A stretch of DNA of 61,115 nt, the filler included. It is 6 parts of 6 records of this genome, joined end to end, with 100 filler letters (N's around TTAATTAATTAA, not from the genome) between each part and the next. Parts side by side here need not be neighbours in the genome. Positions count along the whole stretch, not along the records: positions 1 to 20,910 come from SRR15195285_604; 5 more parts are not named here. The stretch is one strand, 5' to 3'. Both the position numbers and the translations under genes were made by a program. The notes below the pieces were generated by a model. It saw nothing but the letters and a program-made list of their open reading frames with translations, was not told the origin of the DNA and made no database searches. Shown here one piece after another: positions 94 to 57,010 of this stretch; the first letter of the stretch is position 1, and each line of letters starts with the position of its first letter.

Positions 94-3000
94 ATGTCCG
101 AGACGGGCGATGCGCAAGTGAACGCGCCGCGGGGAAACGAAGACGCAGTTGTGGAACTCGTAGCTAGCCTGCGTGCACGGGTGGCGTTTCTGGAGGGACA
201 GGTTCAGACAGGTGCAGCGCCCCCCGACAACCCGCCCGGCGAGTCGGATGCCATTGCTGTGGTGGGAAGTGGATGCCGATTTCCCGGCGCCTCTAGTCCC
301 GATGAGTTTTGGAAATTACTCTGTGAAGGCACAGACGCCATTTCGGAGATTCCGCCCGGTCGGTTTGACGTCGACGAGTATTTTGATACCGACGCTGCAA
401 CTCCAGGTACCATGAACGTGAGGGAAGGCGGATTCCTCTCGCAGCCGCTGGATCATTTCGACACAGCAGCGTTTAGTATAGCGCCGCGCGAAGCAAGGCA
501 TCTTGACCCCCAGCAACGGTAAGCCAGTGCCCCATTCTGACCACGATACCATCTTAACTCTCACGGCGACGTGCCGTTCGGCGCTGTTGCTCTCGTAGGT
601 TGCTTCTGGAGTGTGCGTGGGATGCTCTCGACGACGCCGGCGTTTCTTTTGGTGATCTGCGTGGATCATCAACAGGCGTATTTGTAGGATTGATGAACCA
701 TGATGACTTCATCCGGCAGCATGTGGTCGATGATCAAATTACACCATTCACTAACGCTGGCACTTGTATGTCTATTGCCGCGAATCGAGTCTCGTACCAT
801 TTTGATCTTCAGGGCGTGAGCCTTGCGACCGATACGGCTTGTTCGAGCTCTCTCGTGGCTATGCACCTCGCACGCACAGCGCTGCTCAGTCGAGAAGCTT
901 CTGCAGCGCTGTGTGGTGGCGTCAACGCGTTGCTACTGCCAGGGTTGTTTATTGCGCTCGCCAAACTGCGGATGCTCGCGGCAGACGGTCGATGCAAGAC
1001 ATTTGACGCGTCAGCAAACGGGTATGTGCGGAGTGAAGGCTGCGGTCTGGTAGTGTTGAAGCCACTTTCCGTCGCACGTCAGGCAACAGATCGATGTTAT
1101 GCAATTGTGCGTGGCAGTGCACTGAATTCTGATGGTCGATCGGCGATTCCAATCACGGCCCCGAGCATACAGAGCCAGAAGGCCAATTTGCTCAGCGCGT
1201 ACAAATGTGCCCAGATCGACCCCCAACTGGTGCAGTTTGTGGAAGCGCATGGTACAGGTACACAAAAGGGTGACTTTGCCGAGACAGCTGCGTTGGCTGA
1301 CGTGATGGGCGTTCGTAAACGGCCAGACAACCCGCTGTTCTTGGGGTCAGTGAAAACGAACATCGGCCACGCCGAGTCTGCAAGTGGCGTCGCCGGCTTC
1401 ATCAAAGCGATTCTTTGCCTGCACCACTCGCAGATTCCACAAAACCTTCATTTCCATGTGCCAAACCCAAACATAGATTTCACGGGACTCCGCGTTGTTG
1501 ATTGCCATGTGACCAATTGGCCGCGATGCAAGCACATTAGTCGTGAGTCGATGACCGTTGGAGTGAACTCCTTTGGCTTCGGCGGAACAAACGCACATGT
1601 TGTGGTGCAGGCAGCGCCGGCAGCAGCTCCAACTGCGGAAGACCGGGCTGCTCGGCAATCATCTACTTACTGCTTACCTTTGTCTGCCAGGACTGCAGCT
1701 AGTTTGATGAGATGTGCGGTTAACATGGCCAACTGCCTCGAGTCTCGAGATGTTGCTCCACTAGACGCGTGTTACACGGCCGCGCTGAGGAGGACGCAAC
1801 ACACTCATCGAATGGCAGTGATGGGTGAGACTCGGTTGGAACTGTGCACAGCGTTGAGAGATTACGTATCCAATCCAAATTCCCCGGGTTCAAGCCAGAG
1901 GAAGTGCGTTCGAGGTGTCGCAATCGAAACTACGCCACCACGACTGGCATTCGTGTTTAGTGGACAGGGCTCTCATTGGGCAGGTATGGGTGTCCGTCTT
2001 ATGGACACGTGTAAAGTATTTCAGTCAGAAATGTCTCGCGTTGACAGCTTGCTACAACCTCTGTGTGGATTTTCCATTGTTGACGAACTGCGACGTGGCA
2101 AAGCTGCTAGACTGACACAGCCCAACGTTGTACAACCGGCCATTTTTGCCATTCAGGTGGGTATCCTGGCTGTGTTAGACTCATGGGGCATCGTACCTGC
2201 TGCTGTGATCGGTCATAGTGTCGGTGAAGTTGCAGCCGCTTTCTGTGCTGGTGCTCTGACGTTGTCGCAGGCATGTAAACTGATTGCTGTGAGAAGCAGT
2301 CTCTGTCAGAGGGTTTGTAACTCTGGCGGAATGTTGGCAGCAAAGATTACTGCGGACCGTGCTGAGCAGGAATTGCGCAACGCAGATGCAGCAGGCGCTG
2401 AGATAGCTGCTTTCAACAGCCGAACTTCTGTTACGTACAGCGGCAGCACTGAGGAGATAGGATTGATGGAAACTGCCTTTGAGGCGCGATCCATTCCACA
2501 CAAACGCCTTGATGTTAGTGGGGCGTTTCACAGTCGATCTATGGATCCTATCAGATCGCAGTTGGAGGAACAGCTTCGTGATCTGGTCCCCACGTCTTGT
2601 CGTGTACCATTCCTTTCAACCGTAACAGTGGGCCCACTATCGGGAGAGAAGCTGAATGCAGCGTATTGGTGGAGTAACGTGCGACAGCCAGTTCACTTTC
2701 ACGATACAATCGCAGCAGCACGGAGCTCTGGGTGTGACGGGTTCTGTGAAATCGGGCCACACGGAATCTTGCAGAGATACTTGAAAGAAGAGCTTCCATC
2801 ACCGTGTTGGCACATGGCAACGCTCGTGAAACCAAACGACGACAGTGAAGTTGATCGAAATGACGGACTTGTGCACGTCTTGGCGCAGTTTTTTTGTCGT
2901 GGAGTCCATTGCCGTTGGCAAGGTATGTACCCACATGGGTCTGTCATCAGCTTGCCAACTTACCAGTTTGATCGGCAGCGATGCTATGTGGATTTGGTGC

Positions 3001-6000
3001 TGGCAGCTAGAGCAAAGAGATCAGTTCAGGAGCTCGATACCCAAGGGATGCTCAGCCTAGACGCGAGTGCTATGCATAAACAGACAGTTGTGGTGCAGGC
3101 TGCGCGAACAGGCTGGGTGCATGATCATATCTTGCAGTCCAAAATTGTCTTGCCTGGAACAGCGTACATTGAAATCGCTCTCGCGGCTGCAGACCAATTG
3201 TTTTCTAGCATTGCATCTGATCCACGTAAACCTGCTTTCTGCATAAGCAGTTTGAAATGGGTCTCGCCGCTTTTTCTTGATGCAACCGATGTAGCTTGCA
3301 TTGCTGTTGATGTGCAAAAATCATCATCAGGATCGCAATCGCTCAAGTGGAGTCTCGTAATGAGTGAGGCAAATGCTGCACAGCGTTCGGAGCCACGACA
3401 CCTGGCAAATGCAACACTGGACGCCGCACACTCTATTGAGTGGCCAGATCCTGTTCAAAACTTCCTTGAGCTGCAGAACAAGATGCCGGAGCAATCTGCA
3501 GCCACCGTGGCACTATCATCAGACGAAGTGTATCAACGTTTCGCAAAAATAGGCTTAGATTACACCGGCCTCTTTCGTGGAATCGACGAAATGTGGATCG
3601 ACGTTCAGTCGGGACAGTCGGTCGCCCGAATCTGCGCCGTTGGGTATAATAGCGACTCGTACACGTTTCACCCGGCACTGCTGGATTCAATCTTGCAGTC
3701 AATGTCCGGTGCGCTCGATCTTGGTGCTCCGTTGTTCCCTGTAGAAGTTGAGTCTATTAGACTACGGAGGGCGCTGGATGACCAGGAAATCTGGACGCAC
3801 ACTCAGCTGACACAGTCTCAAGACTCGTACGTAGTTGGGAATATCATTGCGTATGATAGTACCGGGCTTCCAGTGGTAGAGATTACTGGATTCAAGGTGC
3901 AGCTGCTGGACAGTCACGACACCCCCCCAACTGTGGCTTCGTTGATGTATTGCACACGTTGGTATTCGCAACCGTTGCCGGAACTCAGACTCACGGGAAA
4001 CGATCTCGGATGGATTATGTTTTTGCCACGCAATCCGCTCGTACCGCAGCTTGTCCAGGCCCTGCTGCATGAATTGCGCGTACGTGGACTGCTGTGTGGC
4101 ACAATCAGTTTGGGTGAGAAGTTTTCCCACAGCGGTGGCGAGTGGACTGTGAGACCTGATCATGGTGAAGACGTTGCGCAGGCCACATCTGAGTTGGAAG
4201 GTCAATTGCCATTCGTTGGCATCGTGAATTTGCTAGGATTAGAAACGCTTGTCGAACCGCTGCAAAATCCTGGCGCAATGGAACGCATCCAACGGGAGTT
4301 TTGCATGCCGCTGATCCATATGCACCAAAGCTATGCGGTACAATCGAAGAAGCGCGCAATTCTGACAGTAAAGTTTGGTGGACCTAATGCAAGTGAAGGT
4401 GTGAAGATCCTCTCGCTTGCGCAGTCGTTTGTAGATGGGATTGTGCGCACGAGCATGCTAGAGTCGACGAATGTGCTTTGTTACGCGGTTAGTCTTTCGA
4501 AGGGAAATGTGACGGAGGGAGACGCTCTTCTTCGAGAGCTGATGCGTTGTTCAAAGGAACTGCGCGGAGAACATTTGCATGAAAGCTCTTCGGACTTTGA
4601 GGTTGCGCTGGAAGACAACAAACGCATTGTGCCGCGAATAGAGCGTGAAAGTGAGCAGTCTGGTAAACTCCTGACACGTGGCCAACTTGTTGTACCAAAG
4701 CATACCTATGTGCTTGTCGGTGGTCTGGGCGGCCTGGGCATAATGGTTGCCGAATGGTTGCTGAAATTGGGCGCTGATTCTCTGGTGCTCACATCACGAC
4801 GTGGCGGTAGTACAAACGCTCTGGAGACGTTGGATAAGCTTCGCCAGTCATATCTTCACGCACAAATTCTGGTTATGTGCTCCGACGCATCGGACTATTC
4901 TGACCTTGTCAGTATGTTTGACGAGTGTAAAGAGTCGACACCTCCAATCAAGGGCGTCTTTCTCTGTACTATGCAACTTGCTGATGCACACATCGAGGCA
5001 CAGACGTTCAACACCGTTCGCTTGGCCATGGCTGCGAAGATGGATGCTGCTTGGAATTTGCATGCCGCTACCAAAGGTCTACAGCTCGACTTCTTCGTTC
5101 TGTTCTCTAGTGTTAGCGGTTTGATTGGCAATCGAGGTCAAGCAAATTACGCAGCCGGCAACACCTTTCTGGACGCACTGGCCCTTTTTCGCCACCGAGA
5201 AAATCTACCCGCGACCTCAATCAACTGGGGACCTGTCAGCGGCGCCGGGTACTTAGCCAAGGACCAGGATCGACTGCTTGCAAGCTTGAAGAAGCAGGGG
5301 ATGCGCCCTGTATCACTCGAAATGCTTCTGCAAGCTTTATCTCAAGTTGTAGACCAACAGCAGCTGGTGCAAGTGGCTTGCATTGACATAGATTGGTCGA
5401 CGTACTTGCGCAAGAACTACACTGGACGGACAAGAGCGATCATGCCCGCTCGCTTGGCGAGTATTGATCATCTCACAGCTGCGCTTACTCGCCCGCTTAT
5501 TCCGAAATCAAAACCAAACGACCTTGGGTCTGTTGAGGACCAACTCAGCACAATCGCGTCGCACATTTTAGGCATCGATTGCGAGTCGAGTGTGTCCGCT
5601 GACACCTCTCTAGTCAGCTATGGTCTAGATTCGTTGATGTCCAGTGAACTGCAACTCACAATTGAGTCCAACTGGAATGTCGTCATACCAATATCGAACA
5701 TTCTACAAGGCGCATCTATCAATGATCTCAGTAAGCTGATCAGTGATTGCAGCCATCCAAATTCCGTTGCGGGGCACTCAGCAAGCTTGGAGACAGATGA
5801 GGCACCTAGTACGGTGACGATAGACTCTATCGATGATAACTTCGGTCACGGATCGTTTACAATACCCAAGCCAGTGCAACCACCAAGACCAATCACGCGT
5901 GCTAGGAAGTTCGCGAACGTGATACCGTCTCCTAGTGAACTAACGCAACCCTTCGCCATGAATGATCTGCAGTTTGCGTATTATATCGGCCGGTCTGGGG

Positions 6001-9000
6001 CATTTGGCGCTGCTGTACCGTGCCATTTTTACTTTGAGTTCGACCGGGAGCACGACGACGAGTTAGACGTTGTGCAGCTTGAGAACGCATTTAACGTGCT
6101 GATTGCACGCCATGACGTATTGCGGTCGGTCGTTGTGGACGGCATGTTTGTCATCAAGAAGTCGGTTGCCGCCTATCGTTTTGATGTCGTACAGCTAGAA
6201 GAACACAATCATGAAATGTTGGAAAAATTGCGACGAAAGTACAGTCTCGAACAGTTTGATCCAGCACAATGGCCCTTGTTCAGCATTGCGATTACGAAAA
6301 CGCCGCGGTGCTCACGCATTCATGTGAACATTGACCACATTATCCTCGATATCAAGGCGACACTAACACTATTCGCAGAGTGGGCACATTGCTATTACTA
6401 TCCTAGCTCTAGTCTACCACACATTGGCTTCTCATATCGCGATTACAGCATCGCTACTGGGCAATACAAGTCCTCTGAGCATATCAATGGCGCCAGGGCA
6501 TACTGGATGGCTCGTCTAGATCAGCTTCCACCCGCTCCTCCGCTGCCGAAAAGCCCAACCAAGGCTTCGGCCGACGAACGGTCAGTTTTCACTCGACGAA
6601 CTGCACTTTTGAGTTCGGAGCAGTGGACCAAGCTCAAATCGTCTGCTGCACAATACAGTGCAACACCAGCTAGTGTCCTTTGTACCGCGTTTTGCCTTGT
6701 TCTGGCTCGCTGGTCTGCCACGTATAGTTTCACAATCAATGTCCCAGTCTTCAGCAAGTTGCCTGTGCACGATGACGTGGAGTCGGTACTGGGTGACTTC
6801 ACATCGTCAATTTTGTTGCAGTGTGATCTCGAGCTCGGTCATGAATTCAGGCAGTGCGTGCAAAAGGTACAGCACCAAATGTCTTGTGATTTGGATCATG
6901 TTGATTTCTCTGGTGTGGCCGTTTTGCGAGAGCTCTCACGCTTACCAATAGGAAGTGGGCAAGCTGTTAACACGTCAGACACAACTGCGTCCGGCAGCAT
7001 GGCAGGCATGCCTGTTGTTTTCACAAGCATCATCGATTCAAATGCAGGCGACTCTTATGGTTGGCTTGGTCGCAACGTGTACGGTATCAGCGAAACTCCT
7101 CAGGTGGAACTTGATGGGCATGTGTACACAATAGGCGATACATTGGCTGTTAACTTTGATTTTATTGCAGCAAGATACCCACCAGGAATGGTAGATGACA
7201 TGTTCGACTCATACATTCAGTTGCTGATGTCTTTGGCAACCGAAGAGTCGTCTTGGACTACCAAACAGCTGCAGATGCTTCCGCATGCTCAACAAGTAGA
7301 GCGTACAAATGCGAATATGATCCACACAAACGAACCACAGTACGAAATTGCACAGCCACAATCGTTAGTGTATGCAATTCTGCCTGCAATGGAAGCAAGT
7401 AAGTGGGGGTTGGCTGTGGTGTGTGGAACTGTGCAATTTACCTACGCTCAACTCCTCAGCACCGCCGTAGAATTAAGTTTAAGAGCGGAGCTTCGTGAGT
7501 TGCCACCACAGTCGACCGTGGCCATAGTAATGCACAAAGGGTGGGAGCAGATTGTCGCAGTGCTTGCAACCCTGCTGTTGGGTGCTGCGTACGTACCATT
7601 GGACGCAGCTTTGCCGCAGCGCAGGCTGTCTAAACTGCTTGCTCAGTGCAAAGCTAAAGCAGTTTTTGTACAGCAGACTGACGGCAGCAGCTGGTCCGTA
7701 CCGACTATCACTGTGGATACAGTTTGTGAACCAGCAACGTGGACCAGCGGTATGGACTGGATCAGTGTATGTCAAGAACAATTACCTCACTGGTCCAGCG
7801 TTCAGACGCACGATCTCGCATACGTGCTGTTTACCAGCGGGACGACTGGCGTTCCTAAAGGTGTGATGGTCGAACATGGGTCCGTTCTAAACACGGTGGG
7901 CTTCGTGAACACACGGTTCCAAGTCTCTTCTGCCGATGTATTTTTCGGGCTGAGCCAGCTTGGATTTGATCTATCGGTGTACGACATTTTCGGTAGTTGG
8001 GCTGCTGGTGCAACGCTAGTTCTGCCGCTCGAAAATCGGATGAAAGATCCAACGCACTGGATTTCACTTGTCGCTCAACACCGCGTTTCCATTTGGAATT
8101 CTGTGCCTGCTTTGATGGCATGGAAGCTTGACAGCATGGTGTGGCCGGACAAGAAATCAACGGCGTCCGGCGAATTATCCAGCCTAAGGCTGGTTTTACT
8201 ATCCGGTGATCGCATTCCAGCAGCTCTTCCTGTCCGGATTCGTACAGTCTTTAATGGTGCAACTGTGGTGAGCCTCGGAGGACCTACTGAGGATACGATC
8301 TGGGCAATCATATGCGAGGAGGTCGATCAGTTGTCCCCAGGTGGACTGATACCGTACGGTGTCCCTATCAGCGGTATGCACGCACATGTGATAGACACGA
8401 TGGGAAACGACTGCCCAGTGTGGACAGTAGGTGAAATATGTTTCACTGGCGTCGGGGTTGGTCGTGGATACTTCGAAGACCCGGAGCTGACAGCTGCGTC
8501 ATTTTCTGTGCATCCAGCGACGGGCGACAGAATGCACCGAACCGGAGACATTGGCCGATATTTACCTGGAGGCAAAATAGAGATCATAGGTCGAAACGAC
8601 TTTCAGGTAACTTTTCTTTCGTTCATTTTTCTTTCGTTAACTTTCCCTTCACTCATTTTCCTGTCACGTTCAGGTCAAGGTACGGGGTTTTCGGATCGAG
8701 CTAGAAGAGATCGAGACGGTAGCCCAAAGTGTGGATGGAATTCAGGACGTGGCCGTTGTGCCTATACGAGACGACAACACTAACCAGAACTACACTGGAC
8801 TCGTAATGTGTTACACAACGACCCCCGAACCTCCGAAGAAAACCACGATTGTCCGACAATCTGAATCGGAAGCCGTTGCCTTCAAATGTGCCAGACTAGG
8901 AGAGCGGCAGGGGTTGGGGTCTGCCATTGCGTTGACACGCGTTGCATCACTAGAGGCACAGAAGCTTGCCCAGGATCGTCGCACGTGGCGCATGTTTGCA

Positions 9001-12000
9001 TCCTCAGCACTACCGCGGGAGAATTTTGAATCTGACATTGTAGAATCACTTCGTGAGACCTGCGCCAGCAGTTCTGTGGAGATGAAATACTTGCTGTACG
9101 TCCGAGAGGGAGGAATATCAGGTGTCCCATCAGGCTTTTACCAGATCGGCAAGCAGTTTTCACTCAAAGCCGAGAGTACATCGGACACCTTTGAACAGCT
9201 ACCTGCAGACACGGTATTTGGGGAAAACGAGTCGATTTTCCGCACGTCAAGCGGAGCAATTTTCATGTTGCAGTCTGGCACTACATGTACGCCTGCGGCA
9301 CTAATCGAAGCCGGAAGAATTGGTCATCGGCTGATGCAAAGTGTGGCTTCAGAAGATGCTGCAACAGGATTCTGTCCGATTGGCGCGATCAATTCATCAG
9401 CTTTGTATGGGTGGTTGGCATCTGGTAACAAGTCCAGCACGGTTGTCCACACTATGTGCTTTGGGCCTGTCTTAGGCTCTGTTGGTAATTCTACGCCCAC
9501 GCACATGAAGCAGACGCGCGAACAGCAGTTGCGTGCTCGTCTTACGTCCGAGCTTCCGCAGTACATGGTTCCACGTTCATATTTCGAAGTAGATGCGATG
9601 CCACTTTCAAAGAACGGCAAAGTTGACCGCCGTGCACTCGAAATCTTGTACCACTCAGACAATAGAGAGCGACTTGCACATAATTCAGTCCAAGCTTCCT
9701 GTGGTGACTCATCTAGTGGTGATGTGAATGTATCGCCGGCAGAAACTGAGCTACTGGTCATCTGGAAGAATCGACTTAAAGGCGCAACGAACATCAACAC
9801 TAAAGATGACTTTCTGGCGTTGGGTGGAGACTCTCTTGTTGCTTTGCAAATGATCGTAGATGCTCGTGCTAAAGGATTGCAGTTCTCTGTAACAGATCTT
9901 TTTGCAGCACGTACCATTCAAAATATGGCACGGCTGGCAGCAGGGCAGCAGTATAATGCTGAAAGTGCTCAAAATTCCCGTGACAAGGCAATGGAAACAA
10001 AGGACATGTCGAGATTGCCACAGCTACTCGAGGATCCAGCGAAACGCCACGAGCCGTTTGGTTTGACGCCAGTTCAGCAGGCCTATTGGGTGGGCCGGCA
10101 TGAAGAGATGAACCTCGGCAATACATCAACGCATGGATATCTAGAGTGGAAAGTGACTAGTTTCAAGCTCGAGCGACTCCAGTCTGCTCTGGTGTCCCTC
10201 GTTGAAAGACACGAGATGCTGAGAGCCATCGTACGGCAAGATGGGTTGCAGCAAGTGTTGCCTGTGAGTCACAAGACCTACCCTGCTGTAAATGTGATCG
10301 ACTTGACTAAGCATCCTGAACAAGAAGCGGAGATGCGTCGAGTCCAGATACGCAACCGCCTGTCTCACGAGATCTTCGACCCGTCAAAATGGCCGCTGTT
10401 CTCGGTTTCTGCGATATCTGTCAGTGAGGTTGACTGTTATGTCGGCTTCAGCTACGATATGCTCGTGTTTGACGTGCGCAGCATCTTTATGTTTGTTGAT
10501 CAGCTGTTTTTGATCTACCATGGGCGAGAGCACGTATACACCAAGCCGAAAATCAGTTTTCGAGACTACACAGAAGCGCTTGAGCGCTGGAAATATGAGT
10601 CTAGCGACTATCACAACAGCATACAGTTCTGGCGGCAAACATTTGTGGAGCACCGTCCACGTGGTCCAGACTTACCGCTGGCATCAAGACCCGAAGACAT
10701 CGAGCAACCTCGGTTTCTACGCCAAGAATTGCGGTTCTCTGCAGCCGTGTGGTCAAGCTTTAGCGAAAGCGCCACCGAAAACGGACTGACCCCGTCGGCC
10801 GTTTTACTTTCTCTGTTCGGACTGGTCTTGCGACAATGGTGCAGTGACGAAAATCGTCCCTTCTGCATCAATGTGCCTGTGTCATCGAGGCTACCCCTTC
10901 ACGTGGACGTCGACCGCCTCATTGGAGACTTTACCACGACAATCTTCATCACTTTCCAAGGCAGCAGCACTTGCTTTCTTGAACAAGCTCGGGCTACTGC
11001 TGAGCAACTAATGGAGCGCATCGAGCATCGCCACGTATCTGGCGTAGAAGTTCTCCGGAGTCTGTCAACAGGCGATCCCTCTATCATGTCTGAGATGGCG
11101 GTACCTGTTGTTTTTACCTCTGCGTTGGACATAAGTGTTGAGGCTCATTCTGATATAGAATTTTCCTACGGTGTCTCACAGACGTCACAAGTCTGGCTTG
11201 ACTGCCAGGTATACACAGAGAATGATACCCTCATCATGAACTGGGATTATGTATCCGGCCTGTTTGCACCAGGACTAGTCGACACGATGGCTACATTGTT
11301 CTACGCAAGCGTAGGCAGATTGTCGGCCAGCTCATCATGGGACACGTTGAAGATTACAAGTGGTGTTGACATGCCAGATGGTGGTGACGACCTAGCGGCT
11401 GCAAACAATCATCAGCTTCTGCACTCAGCGTTTGTACAACACGCCTGTTCTCATGGCGAGCGTCCAGCTGTAGTTTCTGCAGAAACCGGAAGGATATTTT
11501 CTTACCGCCAGCTGCTTGATCAGGCAGTAGTGGTCCATAACTGGGTAGCACAGCACGTCTCCCACAAGGCGGAGCAAACCCGGCTTGTTGCTGTGGTAAC
11601 AAACAAAGGCTGGGAAGAGGTCGTTGCCGTTCTTGGTGTGCTATGTACCGGAGCTGCGTACATACCGATTTCGGCATCGCTTCCTCCAAATCGAATCAGG
11701 CAGCTTCTCGATTTGTGTGAAGCATCGTGTGTTTTAACGCACTCCGCAATTAAATCCTATCTGGGATTCTTGGATGCAATTGCTCCGACTCTGTGTGTTG
11801 ACGCCATCGATTACCCTGGCACCTCGACAAAAGCACATGACCAAATCATCGTATCTGGCGACGGAGGTTCTTTGGCTTACGTCATATTTACCAGTGGGTC
11901 CACCGGTGTGCCGAAAGGAGTAATGATTCAGCACTGTGCTGCACTAAATACAATTGACGAAATCAACCGCCGATTTGAGGTAGGTTCGGCTGACAGAGTT

Positions 12001-15000
12001 CTCGGGGTATCGTCGCTCAGCTTTGATTTGTCGGTTTGGGATATATTTGGAATTCTCAGTGTGGGTGGATGCCTCGTCATCCCATCAGCTGACTCTGTCA
12101 GAGATCCAGCACAATGGGTTGAGTGCATTCGAGCTCATGGCGTAACGATTTGGAACTCCGTACCACAGCTATTGAGCATGCTCGTTGAGCACGTTGGTGA
12201 CGCACGCGACGTAGCAGTCAACGGGCTATCATCGATGCGGCTGGCTCTTCTTAGCGGTGACTGGATCCCTGTTGGACTACCAACTGCATTCCGTGCAGTG
12301 ACATCTGATGCAACCAGTGTGATTTCTCTCGGTGGAGCCACTGAGGCCTCGATATGGTCGGTGATATTTCCGATTGATGAGGTGAAGCCAGAATGGGTTA
12401 GTATCCCTTATGGTAAAGCTCTGGCAAACCAGCGCATCTACTGCCTGAATGCAAATTTCGAGGTAACTTTGCCTTGGGTTCGTGGAGAACTATACCTCGC
12501 TGGGGTTGGCTTAGCCGTTGGCTACTGGAAAGCACCCGACCTAACAGCCACGCAATTCATTCTGCATCCAGAAACGGGCGAACGCCTCTACAGAACAGGC
12601 GACATGGGACGGCTCACAGACACAGGCGATATTGAATTTCTCGGGCGCGTTGACTCGCAAGTCAAGCTGTCGGGATATCGCGTCGAGCTTGGCGAGGTAG
12701 AAGTTGTTCTACAGAGCCACCCTCAGGTACAACATGCAGTTCCATTGGTGGTGGACATATCTTCGTCTCGGGCCTTGGTGGCCGCGGTTGTGCCTACTGG
12801 TTCTGTGGATGACACTTTTAACACACAGTTGTGCAACTTCGTCAAATCAAGGCTCCCTGATTACATGGTTCCTCGTGCGATCGTTACGATGGACTCTCTG
12901 CCACTCACCAAGAATGGCAAGGTCGATGGCAAGCAGCTTCACGTGCGGATGCACCATGCTATCGAAATGTCACCGGAGCAAGACTTACATGTTTCTCCAG
13001 GGCATGATGTGAAGCATCTCGCTGTATCTTTGGCCTTGGATCCTATTGTATCGAACATTGTGTCGATCTGGCAAGACGTCTTGAAAATTCCAGTGGAACC
13101 AAATTCCGATTTTTTTGTAGATCTTGAAGGGGCGTCTGCTGTGGCTATACAGCTCATCAACACTGTGAATGCTTGTCTGAACACGAAGATGGCTGTCGCC
13201 AAACTCTTCAGCCACCCAACTCCATTGCTCCAGGCCGAGCTCGTCAGGCAGGGAGGAGGTTGCGAATCAATCACACCCATCGTCGACCTTGCACCAAGTT
13301 CAACGGCTTCGCACCGTGTGTACTGTATACATCCTGCTGGGGGCAGTAGCATTTGCTATGCACGAGCTGCTCGAGCACTAGAAAATGATCTGCATCTGTT
13401 TGGTGTCGACGATCTGCATTCGGTGGCACAGCTTTCACAATCTGTTGACGGTTCAGCCGAAGATGTTGCATCACAGGAGGATGACATAGATTTGCATGCA
13501 GATGTGGAGAAAGAATTGTCCATCAAAGAACTGGCAAGACGCTACGCGCAGTTCATTGTCGAGCATGCCAAAGGGGAAGAGTTTGCTCTGGTTGGGTTCA
13601 GTTTCGGTGGGATCATTGCATGGGAGGTGGCATCACATTTAAATGAAGCTAGCAAGGTGGTCGGTATCAGCCTCATCGACACAGATGCTCAGGGCGAAAC
13701 GACAATGACCGACGAGGCAATTTTGGGCAATATCGTAGAGCATTATCGGCGCTCAACAGGGCAGAACGTTGAAACGCTCAATATGCCTTCAAATGCCACT
13801 CAGAATCAGGATGAGTTGTGCCAATTAGTTGCTGATCATATGGAAGAAGCAGGACTGTATCCACAAGGGATTGGGTTTAGCGCGCTGAAGCGGTTCTTAG
13901 CTCTATTTCGTCGGCACATCAGGATGATTGACGCCTACACATTCCCGAGCACGCTAGGAAGACGAGTTCCGGCAATATTTGTGTCGGGTTTAGATTCTAG
14001 CCGACAACAACGGGAGTTCTGGAATGGCCTCTGTACACATTCAGGAGGTTTACTGCACGCTGCTGTACCTGGTCATCACGATGAAATGCTGTCTGAGCTC
14101 CACTCAAGCACAACTGTTGGGTCTTGCGCACAATTCTTCCAGGGCAACCCTCTGCAGTTGACACAGTTGCAAGATGGCAAGAAAGCCCATCTCAAACAAG
14201 TGGTTGTAGAATGTCTCCAAGTTGATATCGATCCTCAACAGCTCTCCGAGGGTACAGACCTGTGGACACTCGGTGCCAACTCAGTATTCTACGTGAAGCT
14301 GCAGCGTCGTCTCAAGAAGGATCTAGGAGTAGATGTACGATTACCTGCTCTACTTGCGGCCCCACGACTGAGTGACTTGAGTGCAATTGTCATGCCACAT
14401 GTTGACACCCACGAAAGCAAACCTGGGGAAGCTGCTCAAAACCCCTCGTGCACGCCATTGCGTGAAGACTATTCGAATCCAGCTGAAGCAGCAGCAGGTC
14501 ACAGCTCCGTTGCAATTATTGGGATGTCTTGCCGGCTCCCAGGAGAAGCGAATTCACCCGAAGAATTCTGGAATAATTTAATCAATTCTGTCGATTGCAT
14601 CAGTAGATTCTCATCAAACAAGTCTGCAGATTCGAATTGGATAGGTGCCAGTGGCTTAGTTCACGGAACCTGGATGGACTGCTTTGACTGTGAACTATTC
14701 CAGATGACACGAAAGGAATCGTCAATATTGGATCCACAACACAGGCTGTTTCTAGAGCTGGTTTGGGAAGCATTAGAACAGTCTGGGATCCGTGAGCGTG
14801 AGAAAGCTGTTGGAGTTTGGTCTAGTTTTGCTCCTAACACCTACCTACAGGCGTTGTTGAAGCAACACGCGGTAGCTGAGCCAACCGGCACAGCAGATAT
14901 GCTGCAGTTACTTCTCGGTAATGAGCGCGACTACGCATCTGCACGACTTTCGTACCTATTGGATTTACGTGGGCCTAGCATGAACGTCCAGACTGCGTGT

Positions 15001-18000
15001 TCTAGCAGCTTGGTTGCGATGCATCTGGCGCGCGAAAGCCTCAACCGTGGAGATTGTGCTGCTGCGGTTGTTGGTGCCGTATCTCTTGCCTTTCCGATGC
15101 GACGAGGCTACACATGGGAACAGGGGGGGATTTTTTCACAGCGTGGTCGATGTGCCGCGTTCGATGTCTCTGCTGATGGTACGGTCCCAGGATTTGGTGG
15201 TGCAAGCGTGATAATGCAACCAATCGGAACTATAGATGCGCAATCCAACCACTATGCTGTGCGTGCTGTGCTGCGTGGCGGTGCAGTGAATCACGATGGT
15301 CGCCGGAAACCTGGCTTCACGGCACCCTCAATGCAGGCTCAATTTGAAGTGCTGCGCGCGGCGTTCATCTCTGCCGAACGAAGCCCGTCCACTCTTGGCA
15401 TGATTGAAGCTCATGGAACCGGTACTGTACTCGGGGACCCGATTGAAGGCACAGCACTTTTGCAGTTGCTTGCATCCGCAACGGATGCTCGTGCGTCGAA
15501 TATGCCTGTAGCCCTGGGCTCTGTAAAAAGCAACATCGGGCATCTCGATGCTGCTGCAGGGCTTGCTGGAGTTGTCAAGGTCGTGTTGGCATTGGAACAT
15601 TCCAAAATACCGCCCACACTTCATGTCTCGCAACCAAATCCTGCGATTCCATGGGGCTCACACCTGGCACCTGTGACGCAGGCCCAAGAATGGCCTGGCC
15701 TCCAGTCAACTGCTGGCGTAAGTTCGTTTGGCATGAGCGGCACCAATGCACATATCGTACTACAGCAGCCGCAGAAGAGTGTCTTGGATGATGCGACACA
15801 AGCTCCAGAGGCTGTTGGCCAGCCTTCCCTACTGACGTTGTCTGCAGCATCAGAAAGGTCGCTTCAAAGTTCCGTCGAGAACTTGCGCAGCTGGGCCAAA
15901 GATCACCCAGATTGCACACTTGCAAACGTAGCGTTGACATTGCACCGTCGCCATGAACACCGGCTCGGTTACCAGGCAACTGCCGTGGCACACTCTAACG
16001 TTCGCGCGATATCCAGCACCGACTTCATCGTGCACCAGTCGGGTGATGTAGACGTGGTGTTTCTGATTCCCGGCCAAGGGGTTCAGTCGCTGGAGCATGT
16101 TGCATCTATGTACTCGTACCACGCAGGCTTTCGCTTGCAAGTCCAAGAATGCTGTGATCTACTGTGTGCACAGGACGAGTGGCAAGCTGTTGGCACTTCT
16201 GTACTACGCGCTATTGCGAGTGGGCGCAGTATTAGTCTCACTGGCCAGGCTGAGCAGCAGGCCTGCGTCTTTGTGGTCAACTACGCAATGTCACAGGTCT
16301 GGATACAGACTGGAGTGACTCCGAGGTGCGTTTGCGGGCACTCTCTGGGTGACCTTGTTGCGTGCTGTATATCCGGCGCTGTAGAACTTAAGGATATGCT
16401 TCGACTAGTTGCCAAACGCGGGCAGCTAGTCGACTCGCTCGCAAGGACTGATGGGGGCATGTTAGCGGTGCGATGTACTGAGGACGTCTTGTGCGCTGAG
16501 CTTACAGAAGCCCGCTGCAGCGGCAAACTTGTGCTGGCAGCAGTCAACCAACAGAACCAGCTCGTTGTGGCAGGGCTGGGTGAGGACGTTGCTCGATTTG
16601 AGTCTCATATGAAAAACCGTGGGATTGCAGCACACCGACTTCCAGTGCAGCATGCGTTTCACACCCTGGCAATGGAGGCAGCATCAAGAGAGCTCAAGCA
16701 GCTTTTCGCGAACATCAACGAACAACCACAGGAGGCTAAGAGCGATGGTGTTGTGCACATATCGACGGTTACAGGTCAGCGACTCCAGGAACAACCGACA
16801 GCGGAATATTTCGCGCAGCAGCTCGTGCTCCCAGTCCAGTTCTGTGCTGCTGTTGAATCGGCAATATGCCACGGACCAAGCTCTGTGGAAGGTGCAGGTG
16901 CCACCACACACCGAGTACTGCTAGAAGTAGGGCCGTCAACTACGTTGACATCGATTGTGGCGGGTTTGGGGACAGGCCTATCATCATTCCCTCACCACAG
17001 CCGTTCGCAAATGGATGGATATTCTCACTGGCTACACACTTGTGGCATTTTGTGGAGCCTTGGTGTGCCGGTGCAGCTTCCTGGACTTACATCCCCTGAT
17101 GAGGCTACTAAATATTTGTCAGGATTGCCGCCGTATGTGTTCGACCGCGAGCAGCTCACAGCTCCGAGCCAGCGAGCAATTGGCGAAAGTGGTTCGAACC
17201 CCAAGAAAGTTGACTCAACTGAAAACACCAAGGAGATGCTGAACAAACTTTTTCAGGACACGTTGGCGTGCAGTAGTCCTGTCGATGTCAACAGCAACTT
17301 TTTTACCCTTCGAGGCTCATCATTGGATGTCGTGCAACTTCTCAACGGAGTTAGGAGCACGCTCGGGGTGACTATCACCATGTCTCAGTTTTTGCAACAG
17401 CCGACAGTGCAGGGGCTTTACGATCTTGTGTCGAGTGGTGACCACACGCAGTCCAGCGACGATTCAAAACCCGTCAGTGGTACGGACACTACCCACAAGT
17501 TTGAATCATGGCACCCACTCAGCTTCAGTCAGGAGGCGATATATGCGATCGAACACATATATCCACGAAATGATGGTGTGTACAACCTTCCGTCTGCCTT
17601 CATTTTTCCAGTAGGGACGCTGACACAGGCACAGCTTTCTGACCATCTGGCTCGTCTGGTCGCTAAACACGATTCCCTGCGCGCTACATTTCGTTCCAAC
17701 AGTTCTGCAACGTCGACTAAGTACACACCATGTATGTCAGTCGCTGACACGTATGTAGTTGAAGTTGAACAAATCTCTATTCATCGAAACAGTCCTGGCG
17801 ACGAGAGTGACGACCAAGAAGCATTAGACAGGGAACTGCGGCGCTTCACCAACAAGCCCTTCGACCTGCGAGCAGGCCCTCTAATCCGAGCAGGTGTTGT
17901 ATCGCAAGTGGTCCTATCGAAAGTGGGTGCGGAAGTGACAGTGGCAGTTGTAGTGCTTCATCACCTTGTCTGTGATGGATTATCAGCTGGTGTTCTGCTG

Positions 18001-19002
18001 GGCAATCTAGCGCTAGACACGATTGATGCTGGCAAGGCTTTAGATCTTCCCGAACAGAGCTATGTGGAATTTGTGAAATGGGAGCGTCGATGGATTGAGA
18101 CGCGTGCAGCTGAGATCGCCTTGGAATACTGGCGGGGTGAACTAGCGAGGCTGCTATACAAGGAAAATGCGATGGTTTTATCTTTGCAGTCAACGATACC
18201 AGCTGACCCAGACCGTGCCAACAGAGCTGATGCATCCCAGCGCAGACTAGCCATCGGCAGAGAACGGAGCTTCGGTGGTGGTTCTGTGGCGATCACATTG
18301 AGCAAGGACACGGTGCAAAACCTCAGAAAAGTTGCAAGTCAGTTCGGTGTTACGTTGACAGTAGTTTTGATGGGGCTATACGCTTGCTCTTTGTGGAAAT
18401 GTGCAGCTCGTAGCAACAATCCAAAACTGATCCCCATAGGCGTGCCCGTGGCGAATCGACCCCATGGATTCCAGCGGTTGGTGGGTTGCTGCATGAACAT
18501 GGTGGTTCTCTGTTGTGATGTGAAGCCCGATGAGCTGCTGACCAAGTTCCTAATTAACATTCAGCAAAAGGTAGCCGCTGCGGTGGATCATTCCTATCCA
18601 TTCACCGAGTTGGTACGAAAACTCGCGCCACCCCGGGCAAGGGGTTACAATCCACTATATCAAGCGGTGTTCAACGTTCGACCCGCCGAACAGCGTCACC
18701 CAGCCACTACTAGCCCGCTGTTGGGTCCGCAGGTGCCTTACAGATTCGATTCTGATCGATCACAGAATGACATTGGCCTCCACTTAGTGGAACCAGCACA
18801 GCAAGAGTCTTCCACGGGGGCTGACGATGACTGCTGTAGCGGATATCTCGAGTACAATGACCAGATTCTCGATCGGTCAGAAGCGACTGATCTCGCCCGA
18901 TCGTTCATTCGCTTAACAAATTACGTAGCTACTAGAAGTGCTGCCGACGAGGGATCGATGGCCACAATATTGTCGACGCTTGATGGTGCTTTCGGATCCT
19001 GA
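94..19002 (+). CDS. Hybrid type I PKS-NRPS megasynthetase, 3 exons (94-518, 599-8606, 8674-19002), ~6,253 aa: KS-AT-DH-KR-ACP-Cy-A[Ox]-PCP-Cy-A-PCP-TE-ACP-KS-AT-ACP-C
   Basis: Removing GT-AG introns 519-598 and 8607-8673 restores the conserved motifs DPQQR|LLLE (KS) and GRNDFQ|VKVRGFRIEL (A8) in frame. Motifs seen: KS1 DTACSSS/HGTGT/GHAE; AT1 GHSVG/GAFHS; DH HDHILQSKIVLP and HPALLD; KR GGLGGLG/NYAAGN; ACP GLDSL; Cy1 DHIILD; A1 TSGTTGVPKG; PCP GGDSL; Cy2 DMLVFD; A2 TSGSTGVPKG; TE HPAGG/GFSFG/GHHDEM; KS2 QTACSSS/HGTGT/GHLD; AT2 GHSLG/HAFH; C HHLVCDG. Confidence 0.93.
519..598 (+). other. Spliceosomal intron 1 of the PKS-NRPS (80 bp, phase 2)
   Basis: GTAAGC donor and TCGTAG acceptor; splicing gives CG+G = Arg in DPQQRLLLE. 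Confidence 0.93.
8607..8673 (+). other. Spliceosomal intron 2 of the PKS-NRPS (67 bp, phase 0)
   Basis: GTAACT donor, T-rich body, TTCAG acceptor; joins ORF 600.. to the frame of ORF 8731.. and restores the A8 motif. Confidence 0.93.
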
Positions 19003-19188
19003 CGCAAGTAGTTGAGTCATGACTGTGCATTTGGTCTAAACTTGTGCAAAATGCAGCCAGTGCCTCAGCATCTCTAGAGTTGGCCTTTGGTACGAATGTA
19101 TCGCATGCCTGTCAAGTGCCGTCTATATTCCCAGCACTTGACACAGACATACACCCACGCGCAAGCGGGGACAACGTTTCTGACTGCC

Positions 19189-20819
19189 TCACGCTGAACC
19201 TCCCACTAGGCAATGCAGCAGACGATGTGTGTCCGAAAGGCGGAAGCTATTCCGCAGCTCTGGACTAACACATGAATTCACAGCTTCGTCTGGCAACGAG
19301 CACTCTTGTAAAGATATACGCTGCTTTGCTGCAGTATCCATCAGAAGTTCGGTGATGTAACCTGCTTCGAGCATCATGAAGCTGAAGCTGTGCTCGCCGT
19401 ACAGAGGCTCAATAGCCGCGAGATCACCGATCAGAAAGAGATAGAATGCGCAAGCGTCATCACCTGTCGCACCAGCACACCCATCACAAGGTGCGCCCTG
19501 CATTTCCTCTTGCAACAGGTGCAGGGAGTGCGTTGATGGTTTGTAGCTGCGCATTCATATCCACAGCTGTCAGTGCCAATCACAGCGCACACAGAAGGGT
19601 ACAGACACACGTGGGTGACACTCACTAGTAGCATCCGCCGCTGAGACCTTCGATCGCGCCTTGGCGAATAGAAAAGTATACCTGTACGGGGTACAGACTG
19701 CCTGCGGATGCATAGCGATACTTCGGGAGCACATTGCCTTCGATATCGATACACATCAAGGCGTCACAGATGCCTGTAATCTGCTGGGTGGCAATAATGC
19801 TCGATGTTGCCCCTGGGTTGCCTTCGCGTGTGTCACGCACATTCGTCGTCGCACGGCTGGAGTTGCTCACAGCTTCCCATTCATGGCCCGTAGTGTCGAG
19901 GTACTGCTGCTTCAACGTTTGAAGATCACGAACAGACTCCGCGACAGTCTTTACGTCAGCTTTCCTGTCGCAGAAACCAGCAGGATCAGGAGAAGCACGA
20001 CAACCAGGTCACCAAATAATGCCCACAAGATCGGACGCACTCGAGTTTCTTGCTGCGAATGTCTGCCATCTTTGCAGCGATCGCTGCTGCAAGTTTGGTG
20101 GCATGGAGAATATCATCCTCGGATTCGTGGCTCTGCGTCTTGTGTGTTGCGGTGTACAGCGTGTAGCCGACAGCCCAACATGTACTTAGCTGCAGCAACG
20201 TGTCCACTGATGCTTCGGTGACCAGTCGCTGAATGTAGCGCTGCAATTCGTTGCCACGCGCAGCGATTCGCCCATCGGCGCCAGGCAACCATGGAAGAAT
20301 GATACCTTTGCCGGGAAATGGCAAATGCGGAGAATAGCTGGTCAACGATTGGCTCGCAAGAAGCTGGTCGTGTCGCCTGCGCAACTCGCTGTAACGCTCA
20401 GAGAACTGAACTGCGCCCGTAGATCTGCTTGCCACAGTAAACTTGTACTTGATGTGAGAATCTGCCTCAACGCCGGCTATCGTGTGCCCAGTGTACGTCA
20501 CGCTGAAACCTTCGTTGCTTGCAGCACCGTATGGACATTTGCACGGAACAGAGCTTGCTTTCGCTTCGCAGAGTTCTGAGCCAGGGACGCTCGCGACGAG
20601 ACCTGGTAGATGACGTTGCACCCGTTTGATGTGCCCTGGTAGAAATCCGAACTCTTTTGCCAGCTCCTCGGGCGTCAGGTCACAGAAGAGAACAAAATCG
20701 TACCCCTGACCGACAAGAGCCTTGGCATACATTTCCACCTGCGCAGCCGGCTTGATCCCCAAATGCTCCGCCAATAGGGTCTTGAAAAATTCGACGGTGC
20801 CGTCTTCATGCTCGAACAT
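19189..20819 (-). CDS. SAM-like + PX domain + SagB/ThcOx-type (NRPS Ox-like, nitroreductase fold) oxidase fusion; exons 20819-20041, 19964-19626, 19546-19189; ~491 aa
   Basis: Introns 20040-19965 (GTGCGT..GACAG) and 19625-19547 (GTGAGT..CTGAC..GCGCAG) join three ORFs in frame. Ox motifs: KYRYASAGSLYPVQVY, GGCYYYKPSTHSL (formed across the splice) and IEPLYG..MLEAGY. PX motifs: ERYSELRRRHDQL, LPFPGK, RGNELQRYIQRL. The N-terminal YAKALVGQGYD..DLTPEELAKEFG..GHIKR segment is SAM-like. The start lies near the contig end, so it is uncertain. Confidence 0.8.
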
Positions 20820-20910
20820 CCTGTCTTTGTTTCGCGTGGCGCTTTGGTGGCTAGCGCACGCTTGTCTCTTATCTCGCGCCCGCTCTCCCCCCTCCTCGCT
20901 GGAGTCACGC

Positions 20911-21010
20911 NNNNNNNNNNNNNNNNNNNNNNNNNNNNNNNNNNNNNNNNNNNNTTAATTAATTAANNNNNNNNNNNNNNNNNNNNNNNNNNNNNNNNNN
21001 NNNNNNNNNN
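20911..21010. other. Artificial contig linker (N44-TTAATTAATTAA-N44)
   Basis: Identical 100-bp spacer with six-frame stops; occurs five times in the window. Confidence 0.97.
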
Positions 21011-26457: not shown

Positions 26458-26557
26458 NNNNNNNNNNNNNNNNNNNNNNNNNNNNNNNNNNNNNNNNNNN
26501 NTTAATTAATTAANNNNNNNNNNNNNNNNNNNNNNNNNNNNNNNNNNNNNNNNNNNN
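26458..26557. other. Artificial contig linker
   Basis: N44-TTAATTAATTAA-N44. Confidence 0.97.
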
Positions 26558-32866: not shown

Positions 32867-33423
32867 CGTGGGCGGTCTTCAGCGCGTGGCACGGTGCCGC
32901 AGACCGCTAGGCGTCTACAGCTTTCAGAACCCGCGACCAGGCTGCCGGCTGCAGGCCAGCCGCGCCGTCGCACTGAGCACTGCCCACCTGCCCGTCATAC
33001 TGCTGTCAAATCGTTCCATCCTCGTCGCAGACTGTCCCTCCAACCACTAGAAACGCAGGTGCCCCACTCCGACCTCAACTGCACCAAGCCTCATCACGCC
33101 TTGCCAGTGCTCGCTCAGTTTACATCAGCTCCCACACGTATGGCAACCTCGTGGCACAGGGTCTGTCCAGTGCCTGCTGGCTGTCGGCTAGCAGTACCGG
33201 CAGTAGCACAGCTCACCGCTGTCTATGGGAACACCATTCTTTGGCTAAGAACCACCTCAACGTGTATTGACATTGCCATTGGTAGTGCGCATCCGACGGC
33301 GTCCGTCCGCGCGCGCGCGGCGCACGCCCGTCCGCGCGCGTGCCGCGCGACCATTTACCGATAATACATACGAAATTTGTACATGTACAGTATGTGTAGG
33401 CGGTACACCGGTACTGTACTCAA

Positions 33424-33892: not shown

Positions 33893-33992
33893 NNNNNNNN
33901 NNNNNNNNNNNNNNNNNNNNNNNNNNNNNNNNNNNNTTAATTAATTAANNNNNNNNNNNNNNNNNNNNNNNNNNNNNNNNNNNNNNNNNNNN
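33893..33992. other. Artificial contig linker
   Basis: N44-TTAATTAATTAA-N44. Confidence 0.97.
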
Positions 33993-43480: not shown

Positions 43481-43580
43481 NNNNNNNNNNNNNNNNNNNN
43501 NNNNNNNNNNNNNNNNNNNNNNNNTTAATTAATTAANNNNNNNNNNNNNNNNNNNNNNNNNNNNNNNNNNNNNNNNNNNN
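43481..43580. other. Artificial contig linker
   Basis: N44-TTAATTAATTAA-N44. Confidence 0.97.
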
Positions 43581-56910: not shown

Positions 56911-57010
56911 NNNNNNNNNNNNNNNNNNNNNNNNNNNNNNNNNNNNNNNNNNNNTTAATTAATTAANNNNNNNNNNNNNNNNNNNNNNNNNNNNNNNNNN
57001 NNNNNNNNNN
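56911..57010. other. Artificial contig linker
   Basis: N44-TTAATTAATTAA-N44. Confidence 0.97.

Follow-up and report, generated by a model that had tools for sequence, protein, structure and literature searches.

A Eukaryotic SAM-PX-Ox Fusion Gene Beside a Polyketide-Nonribosomal Peptide Megasynthase and Its Possible Role in a Split, Membrane-Tethered Oxidase

The DNA analyzed here, hereafter the window, is a stretch of 61,115 nucleotides made of six contigs joined by N44-TTAATTAATTAA-N44 linkers, and the public sequencing runs in which parts of it occur are aquatic, marine or estuarine metagenomes and metatranscriptomes. Its first contig (SRR15195285_604, positions 1-20910) carries both of the genes with which we are concerned. 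The first, which we call the SAM-PX-Ox gene, lies on the minus strand and encodes, in this order, a SAM-like domain, a PX-fold domain and a domain of the Ox type (SagB/nitroreductase) known from nonribosomal peptide synthetases (NRPSs). The second, on the plus strand, encodes a megasynthase that combines polyketide synthase (PKS) and NRPS modules and has a divergent Ox-like insert of its own, here termed Ox*. The SAM-PX-Ox gene is real and is expressed, its source being an uncultured microbial eukaryote of aquatic or marine habitat, and the motifs missing from its Ox-type domain are those that Ox* has kept, a pattern that may reflect an oxidase divided between the two proteins.

Organization of the SAM-PX-Ox Gene

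The gene runs from 20819 to 19189 on the minus strand and has three exons and 491 codons, with an ATG at 20819-20817 and a TGA stop codon at 19191-19189. Joined by coordinates, the exons give a coding sequence of 1476 nt in which the sole stop is the terminal one. Its parts are as follows.

20041..20819, minus strand: exon 1, 259 codons plus 2 nt, with the start codon, the SAM-like domain, the PX-fold domain and a helical linker; RNA contigs at 20040-20115 and 20146-20311
20595..20807, minus strand: SAM-like domain (about amino acids 5-75), assigned by phmmer against PDB and by profile similarity
20148..20513, minus strand: PX-fold domain (about amino acids 103-224), assigned by an AF2 model, Foldseek and VIA-align
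19965..20040, minus strand: intron 1, 76 nt, GTGCGT...ACAG, at the border between the eukaryotic modules and the Ox-type domain; skipped in one RNA contig
19626..19964, minus strand: exon 2, linker and first half of the Ox-type domain, including the PKYRYASAGSLYPVQVY loop
19547..19625, minus strand: intron 2 (predicted), 79 nt, GTGAGT..GCAG, based on frame, profile alignment and the ends of ortholog open reading frames (ORFs)
19189..19546, minus strand: exon 3, which completes the Ox-type domain (Tyr of PLYG, LEAGY, CSLP instead of CPIG, LHCLVGG) and carries the stop codon; poly(A) contigs at 18986-19329

Neither intron length is a multiple of three, and removal of intron 1 joins ..SKKL-E|KADVK.. 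through a split GAG codon. The predicted intron 2 is supported by an alignment to NRPS Ox domains that is gap-free over the junction and restores the YYY motif, as well as by matches to TIGR03605 that are contiguous between exon 2 (model positions 30-58) and exon 3 (60-135). At the other end of the gene, the SAM-like domain starts directly after the Met of this ATG. The contig extends 91 nt upstream of the ATG and no stop codon closes the frame over that distance, so the gene may have an additional 5′ exon. The linker gave matches to WHEP-TRS (18-19 bits vs a 32.5 cut-off), which we rejected, reading the segment instead as a generic helical linker.

Transcription and Splicing

Four RNA libraries (X14-X17) were mapped onto positions 18500-20910. 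One X14 contig (151 nt, depth 2.2, ≥99% identity) joins 19964 to 20041 with 75 and 76 nt on the two sides and omits exactly the 76 bases 19965-20040, whose borders, CT..AC on the plus strand, are GT..AG on the strand of the gene. This support for intron 1 splicing, one contig from one run at a depth of 2.2, is direct but thin, and on it the PX and oxidase exons are spliced together in RNA. An earlier note on this DNA, made from the letters of the sequence, had described a canonical 76-bp intron at 19965-20040 with an in-frame joint; its coordinates and strand were right, and the bases skipped by the X14 contig are the same. The note had also taken the PX and oxidase exons to form one transcript, with separate genes as the alternative, and that alternative is not borne out by the RNA across 20041/19964, where one contig spans the joint.

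A second X14 contig covers the PX exon at 20146-20311, while the poly(A) libraries X15-X17 cover 18986-19329, that is, the end of exon 3 together with the 186-nt gap between the stop codons of the two genes. The intervals 19330-19888 and 20312-20910, which hold intron 2 and the 5′ end, have no contig in the four runs, a gap that is uninformative. Contigs from the RNA libraries also lie over the 3′ region of the megasynthase (18500-18975). The stop codons of the two genes are convergent and 186 nt apart (19003-19188); the poly(A) contigs span this gap, two of them starting at 18986, and the 3′ untranslated regions of the SAM-PX-Ox gene and the megasynthase probably overlap.

The SAM-Like and PX-Fold Domains

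Against PDB sequences (phmmer), the SAM-like domain matched the SAM domains of Caskin-1 (E=3.1e-5) and Caskin-2 (E=0.002). A profile of eight family members matched 19 PDB chains at E≤1 (best E 5.5e-4), these being chains of Caskin-1/2 and SARM1, aligned through their SAM regions, and 2dkz, an entry titled “hypothetical protein”. This similarity to solved structures, in sequence and in profile, supports the SAM-like assignment of the earlier note. Pfam SAM_1 gave E=0.22 and 12.4 bits vs a 23-bit cut-off, and a poor single-sequence AF2 model of exon 1, with a predicted local distance difference test score (pLDDT) of 36.3, placed low-confidence helices in the SAM region at residues 4-19, 25-37, 50-57 and 61-70.

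The PX assignment rests chiefly on structure. Pfam PX (PF00787) scored 19.6 bits (E=0.0013), under its gathering score of 21.6. Among the relatives described below, P0006 and P0007 scored 15.0 and 19.1 bits, and P0008, P0009, P0010 and P0022 gave no match at E≤0.1, so that 3/7 sequences have a sub-threshold match and 0/7 reach the cut-off. An AF2 model made with a 7-sequence alignment had a pLDDT of 83.7 and a predicted template modeling score of 0.80. It shows three strands in a meander, alpha1, a loop of 25 residues and three further helices (alpha2-4), its elements being strands at model residues 17-26, 33-42 and 46-53, a helix at 54-66, the loop, and helices at 92-112, 116-125 and 127-145. 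With this model, every match listed by Foldseek was a PX domain (Nischarin, SNX3, SGK3/CISK and SNX11 among them; best E 4.7e-4), and among the matches listed by VIA-align 50/50 were PX domains, with Z from 11.2 to 8.4. The PX domain read by the earlier note thus survives structure search. The same note had proposed a profile scan for PX, SAM and nitroreductase, which did return matches to all three, each of them under its cut-off.

Phosphatidylinositol 3-phosphate (PtdIns3P) is contacted by an Arg-Tyr pair at beta3/alpha1, the PPK-loop Lys together with an alpha2 Arg, and non-binders are without at least one of these (Chandra et al., PMC6449406). All four contact residues are present in the window protein, as R142-Y143 at the beta3/alpha1 junction, K171 in LPFPGK and R188 in alpha2; their placement follows the model's secondary structure and an alignment to CISK-PX rather than 3D coordinates. 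LPFPGK stands for the PPK motif and has one residue fewer between the prolines than PsiPxxPxK. Since the four-residue set is intact, putative PtdIns3P-mediated tethering is plausible, and the attachment to endosome, phagosome or vacuole membranes that the earlier note had imagined would be a reasonable reading of these residues.

The Ox-Type Domain

Database matches of the Ox-type exons are bacterial NRPSs with a nitroreductase domain embedded in the A domain, including P0004 (a metagenomic Cy-A(Ox)-PCP protein; P numbers denote database proteins) and annotated NRPSs of Stigmatella, Pyxidicoccus, Acaryochloris and Verminephrobacter. In a blastp comparison with a 9-sequence database, the domain was 41-45% identical over 157-182 amino acids to P0047, P0045, P0050, P0048 and P0004 (E 1e-35 to 1e-38), and three further bacterial Ox domains had identities of 32%, 34% and 40%. 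A hidden Markov model (HMM) of 7 bacterial NRPS Ox domains gave 172 bits over positions 57-237 of 247, gap-free at the exon 2/3 junction. With TIGR03605 the two exons, scanned singly, scored 22.0 and 21.6 bits at contiguous positions, vs a cut-off of 78.4. Because of these identities, the 172-bit score and the bacterial database matches, the C-terminal domain is assigned by homology to the NRPS Ox type, with bacterial character, in keeping with the bacterial origin that the earlier note gave it.

Orthologs and the Wider Family

Exon 1 had 23 matches when 1.84 billion representatives were searched exhaustively with phmmer, and a word-indexed search with exon 2 added P0044. Two metagenomic proteins, P0006 (445 amino acids, 53% identity in exon 1) and P0044 (400 amino acids, 74% identity in exon 1), are ORFs called in prokaryote style on short metagenome contigs (1.7 kb and 5.8 kb, respectively). 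Both extend from the SAM-like domain by way of PX to the Ox-type sequence of exon 2, with the same order and intron positions as the window gene. At the site of intron 1 each has a divergent in-frame insert of different length between conserved flanks (81 and 69 nt, assuming homologous splice sites, vs 76 nt in the window), a pattern such as would be expected of orthologous introns, and in all three the reading frame terminates after ..GCY, at the 5′ splice site of intron 2. These alignments also show that the SAM-PX-Ox architecture is conserved in at least three related genomes. Beyond the window and these two relatives, neither the exhaustive exon 1 search nor the word-indexed exon 2 search found the layout, and a degenerate DNA pattern for the motif QQITG(I/L)CDALM gave 0 matches.

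The modules of exon 1 also occur in other company. In the metagenomic PX-family members P0007-P0010 the C-terminal part is not an Ox domain but a transmembrane segment and a coiled coil, with a conserved C-terminal motif, KHGCTC..T.D.SDP..P.EW.GCA; one of the four bears a Tara Oceans 0.22-3 µm label, which hints at a marine picoeukaryote lineage. In P0011-P0027 the SAM-like module (EDGTVEFF..GIKPA..YA..LV..GYD) is fused to protein kinases, to WD40 plus ion-channel proteins and to a PARP-like domain. Pfam SAM was not found in the seven of these that were scanned (P0011-P0014, P0016, P0020 and P0026). The module looks like a lineage-expanded variant of SAM.

The Neighboring Megasynthase and Its Ox-Like Insert

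On the opposite strand of the same contig lie the following.

558..19002, plus strand: PKS-NRPS megasynthase, identified by Pfam and motifs, convergent with the SAM-PX-Ox gene; its 5′ end may lie further upstream
8830..9507, plus strand: Ox*, a divergent Ox-like insert in the first A domain; 36 bits with a custom HMM over positions 10-238 of 247

The domain order of the megasynthase is ..KS-AT-DH-KR-ACP-Cy-A(Ox*)-PCP-Cy-A-PCP-TE-like-KS-AT-ACP-C. Its two ORFs (558-8783 and 8641-19002) are joined by a 67-nt GT..AG intron (8607-8673) that cuts the A8 motif (..DFQ|VKVRGFRIELEEIE..), which identifies the megasynthase as a eukaryotic gene. DxxxxD is present in both early C domains and HHxxxDG in the last; by virtue of the DxxxxD motif, the two consecutive early domains are classed as heterocyclization (Cy) domains. 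The link to an assembly line that the earlier note drew is thus matched by a Cy-containing PKS-NRPS on the same contig as the SAM-PX-Ox gene. A TE-like segment (PF00975, E=3.8e-10, partial) lies mid-line at about 13516-13692 on the plus strand (amino acids 1626-1684 of ORF 8641-19002); this internal position is unusual, with KS-AT-ACP-C downstream.

Ox* itself gave no match to TIGR03605 at E≤0.1. It keeps RRTWRMF, an Asn (ENESIF) and GFCPIGA, and is without the SAG-loop consensus, YYYxPxxHxL and the Tyr loop. We considered whether the Ox exons of the SAM-PX-Ox gene might be a recent copy of Ox* and rejected this, as the two are 22% identical vs 41-45% for the nearest bacterial domains.

Reciprocal Loss of Motifs

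The residues of these domains were compared with those of BmdC, in which flavin mononucleotide (FMN) sits between protomers. The first protomer contributes R145, R146 and S147 (phosphate), R149 (N1/O2), N236 (N3/O4) and G294 (N5), the second supplies the backbone of 182-186, and Tyr260 is the proposed base (PMC8795117), a role that Tyr202 has in McbC (PMC6395948). In AlbA, the contact of FMN N5 with the backbone NH of the Gly in CPxG is described as conserved and likely necessary (PMC10557607). Mapped by alignment, Tyr260 of BmdC corresponds to the Tyr of P(K/L)YG, S292/G294 to C-S-I-G, N236 to the residue 24 positions ahead of that Tyr, and the SAG loop to 182-186. Motifs are distributed as follows among bacterial Ox domains, the stand-alone protein encoded by the SAM-PX-Ox gene and Ox*.

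R-x-[ST] anchor: bacterial, 8/8 (second Arg 7/8, with Gln in P0047); stand-alone protein, absent; Ox*, RRTWRMF
Asn: bacterial, 7/7 of those with a residue there; stand-alone protein, Gly; Ox*, kept in ENESIF
Gly of C(P/S)xG: bacterial, 8/8; stand-alone protein, CSLP (Gly replaced by Pro); Ox*, GFCPIGA
SAG loop: bacterial, PKYRYASAGSLYPVQVY consensus; stand-alone protein, identical to 5/8 over 17 residues; Ox*, consensus lost, ESLRETCASSSVEMKYL instead
Tyr loop P[LMV]YG: bacterial, 8/8; stand-alone protein, PLYG; Ox*, 8 residues deleted

The losses of Ox* are thus the exact complement of those of the stand-alone protein, which also retains YYYxPxxHxL, LEAGY and LHCLVGG and carries 2- and 5-residue insertions in its CSLP region. 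The orthologs agree as to the loop and the anchor: the PKYRYASAGSLYPVQVY loop is identical in all three proteins, while the RxSxR region is variable, the RxSxR(xF) anchor being present in 0/3 and its place taken by a length-variable linker. In P0044, the linker before the Ox core has a tandem duplication (..QQGDSGAPPRNITT twice) at the site of the bacterial RxSxRxF helix, which underlines that the equivalent segment is unconstrained in the SAM-PX-Ox clade. Because the FMN-holding residues of BmdC and of the eight bacterial NRPS Ox domains compared are absent, the Ox-type domain is unlikely to be an autonomous enzyme, and to call it an oxidase, as the earlier note did, goes further than its residues allow.

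A Possible Heterodimeric Oxidase and Alternative Readings

The reading that we favor, and hold tentatively as a possibility short of probable, is that the stand-alone protein pairs with Ox* in a heterodimeric oxidase, which would also fasten the megasynthase to phosphoinositide membranes. The SAM-PX-Ox protein would then be a three-part accessory subunit serving the adjacent Cy-Cy PKS-NRPS. Its SAM-like domain would mediate self-association, its PX-fold domain, with the intact PtdIns3P set, would bind membranes, and its Ox-type domain would derive from a bacterial A-domain-embedded Ox placed after a domain-boundary intron. We infer the partnership with Ox* because the SAG loop and the Tyr are strictly conserved in a chain unable to anchor FMN. 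The stand-alone chain would give the partner-facing SAG loop and the catalytic Tyr, and Ox* the FMN anchors, and a heterodimer with one composite active site would oxidize a thiazoline or oxazoline bound to the PCP. Through this contact the megasynthase would also be brought to PtdIns3P membranes and into SAM-mediated assemblies. A further step, in which oxidation takes place only where the assembly line meets a PtdIns3P-marked membrane, making a split-active-site, two-gene flavin oxidase into a compartment-gated switch, is unlikely on present evidence. If it is true, a thiazole or oxazole would form, and the product thereby mature, only at a PtdIns3P-marked membrane in a marine protist, and a bacterial NRPS domain would have been recast by exon-level fusion.

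Several observations weigh against this proposal. On the side of the membrane, the matches to Pfam PX, SAM_1 and TIGR03605 are all under cut-off, and the ortholog P0006 is without the PPK-loop Lys (it has FPESR), so that the rule of PMC6449406 predicts that it would not bind PtdIns3P. On the side of Ox*, the alignment is weak (22% identity, E=0.1), and the loop is deleted in HMMER and substituted in MAFFT, the gap being placed differently. Ox* lies in the first Cy module, and the second Cy module is without any Ox. No homolog of Ox* was found at E≤0.01 among 4865 candidates of the “longer” length class, which is weak evidence. Orthologous loci sought in metagenome contigs gave 0/598 confirmed pattern matches. 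By our own estimate, a perfect 3/2 complement of five motifs would arise about 1 time in 10 under random loss. VRDTREG in the window protein and ARYIREG in P0044 might keep two of the Arg positions, although VRDTREG has no Ser. Finally, if the Tyr and the FMN anchors need to be in the same chain, the heterodimer would lack its base.

Somewhat unlikely, in our judgment, is a scaffold without catalysis, in which the Ox-type domain is a pseudoenzyme that docks on an A domain, the SAM-like and PX domains cluster and attach the megasynthase, and the product keeps its thiazoline or oxazoline rings. The loss of the FMN anchors from the stand-alone protein would be natural in that case, as would the badly degraded state of Ox*, with its 36 bits and its failure to match TIGR03605. 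There is also a functional parallel: BmdC docks onto the A domain of a Cy-A-PCP module, and its FMN-free R146E/S292F mutant still binds the NRPS and dimerizes it (BmdB; PMC8795117). Such a scaffold leaves unexplained, however, that in all three orthologs the PKYRYASAGSLYPVQVY loop is identical to that of bacterial enzymes amid drifting neighbors, that the Tyr loop is kept, and that Ox* should keep precisely the FMN anchors. Even in this form, SAM-PX-Ox is an unreported architecture.

It is quite unlikely that the protein is an autonomous oxidase working in trans like BmdC, that is, a homodimer that holds FMN through diverged residues and acts on the Ox-less second Cy module, with the SAM-like and PX domains serving localization only. 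The equivalents of the Ser, Asn and Gly are missing, a Pro at the Gly position offers no backbone NH to N5 (PMC8795117, PMC10557607), and in the three orthologs the place of RxSxR is taken by a linker that varies in length and bears repeats. What speaks for this reading is that the protein is encoded separately and adjoins a Cy-A-PCP module without Ox, that BmdC is matched in a PDB sequence search (E 0.04-0.09), and that VRDTREG may hold remnants of the Arg residues.

A trafficking or signaling protein unrelated to the synthase, in which a SAM-PX protein captured an NRPS fragment for some other binding and the adjacency is left over or coincidental, seems decidedly improbable. PX-family paralogs do end quite differently, in a transmembrane segment plus coiled coil, the SAM-like domain is fused elsewhere to kinases, WD40 and channel proteins, and the Ox-type domain is much nearer to bacterial Ox than to the Ox* of its neighbor. 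Yet the two genes are convergent on one contig with stops 186 nt apart, the motif pattern is reciprocal with the neighbor, and the catalytic elements are conserved. For an assembly or annotation artifact or a decaying pseudogene speak the draft state of the joined contigs, the single low-depth contig of RNA support and the undefined 5′ end, but this reading is very improbable indeed in view of an RNA joint that is an exact GT..AG excision, a frame intact through 491 codons and two orthologs (53% and 74% identity in exon 1) with the same layout.

Other Contigs of the Window

The contigs past the first are separated from it and from one another by the joints listed first below. Genes on either side of a joint are not genomic neighbors, and the sequence past 20911-21010 is not syntenic with the SAM-PX-Ox gene. 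The genes listed for these contigs are of an ordinary eukaryotic kind and unlinked to that gene.

20911-21010, 26458-26557, 33893-33992, 43481-43580 and 56911-57010, no strand: artificial joints of the linker type given above
21330-25586, minus strand: GH123-type glycoside hydrolase with an F5/8 type C domain
29975-32878, minus strand: protein with cNMP-binding and EF-hand domains
50129-52708, plus strand: protein with EF-hand and ion-transport domains

Comparison With Known Systems

The tailoring oxidases known for NRPSs and PKSs are either embedded domains or soluble partners from bacteria, and EpoB and MtaD are types of the former, with Ox embedded in the A domain. To our knowledge, the placement of giant assembly lines in the eukaryotic cell is largely unknown outside fungi. 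The locus described here gives something tangible to work with: a small, expressible protein in which a lipid-reading module is coupled to a domain from an assembly line. Were the heterodimer with Ox* true, it would be a natural case of an active site split between a megasynthase and a membrane adaptor, and it would show a horizontally acquired bacterial domain rewired through an intron-bounded fusion. In full-text literature searches, none of the papers listed connected PX domains to NRPS, SagB or PKS, and the sequence and literature searches made here found no known case of a PX protein with a nitroreductase-fold domain.

The nearest sequences are the Ox domains embedded in bacterial Cy-A(Ox)-PCP modules, the matches including annotated NRPSs from Stigmatella aurantiaca, Pyxidicoccus fallax and Acaryochloris marina; the 17-residue loop is identical in 5/8 of the bacterial domains compared. 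Unlike these, the window domain lies outside the A domain, is encoded by two exons of a eukaryotic gene, is fused to SAM-like and PX domains, and is missing the FMN anchors. The nearest arrangement is that of BmdC from the bacillamide NRPS (PDB 7LY4-7LY7), likewise a separately encoded Ox of nitroreductase fold beside a Cy-A-PCP module (PMC8795117). BmdC was the sole oxidase among five PDB sequence matches at E≤10, a marginal match whose alignment reaches the C-terminal ..LH..xGG, and the Tyr of P(K/L)YG is conserved between the two. In contrast to the window protein, BmdC has an RRE-like N-terminal domain instead of SAM-PX, retains RRSxR, Asn236 and Gly294, all three of which the stand-alone protein is missing, and is a bacterial homodimer rather than the proposed heterodimer with an embedded partner.

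A precedent for an Ox unit made of two non-identical halves is the pseudodimer of the IndC Ox insert (PMC8795117), although both halves of IndC are on one polypeptide, whereas those proposed for the window are on two genes, one of them with membrane and oligomerization modules. AlbAB was considered as a heterodimer precedent and set aside, since AlbB is a helical bundle with no second nitroreductase fold (PMC10557607).

On the side of the membrane, SGK3/CISK, Nischarin, SNX3 and p40phox have the same fold as the PX-fold domain (Z 9.2-11.2 over 101-121 aligned residues), and the Arg-Tyr, Lys and Arg set found in every PtdIns3P binder by PMC6449406 is present in the window protein. The likeness to these endosomal PX proteins is one of fold and contact residues, as identity is 12-21%, LPFPGK is shortened and the match is under the Pfam threshold. 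For secondary-metabolite synthases on endosomal membranes there is a precedent in the fungal melanin PKS enzymes, which are recruited through palmitoylation rather than by a PX subunit and belong to other organisms and another chemistry (PMC5120144); the SAM-PX-Ox protein would represent a different route to a comparable placement.

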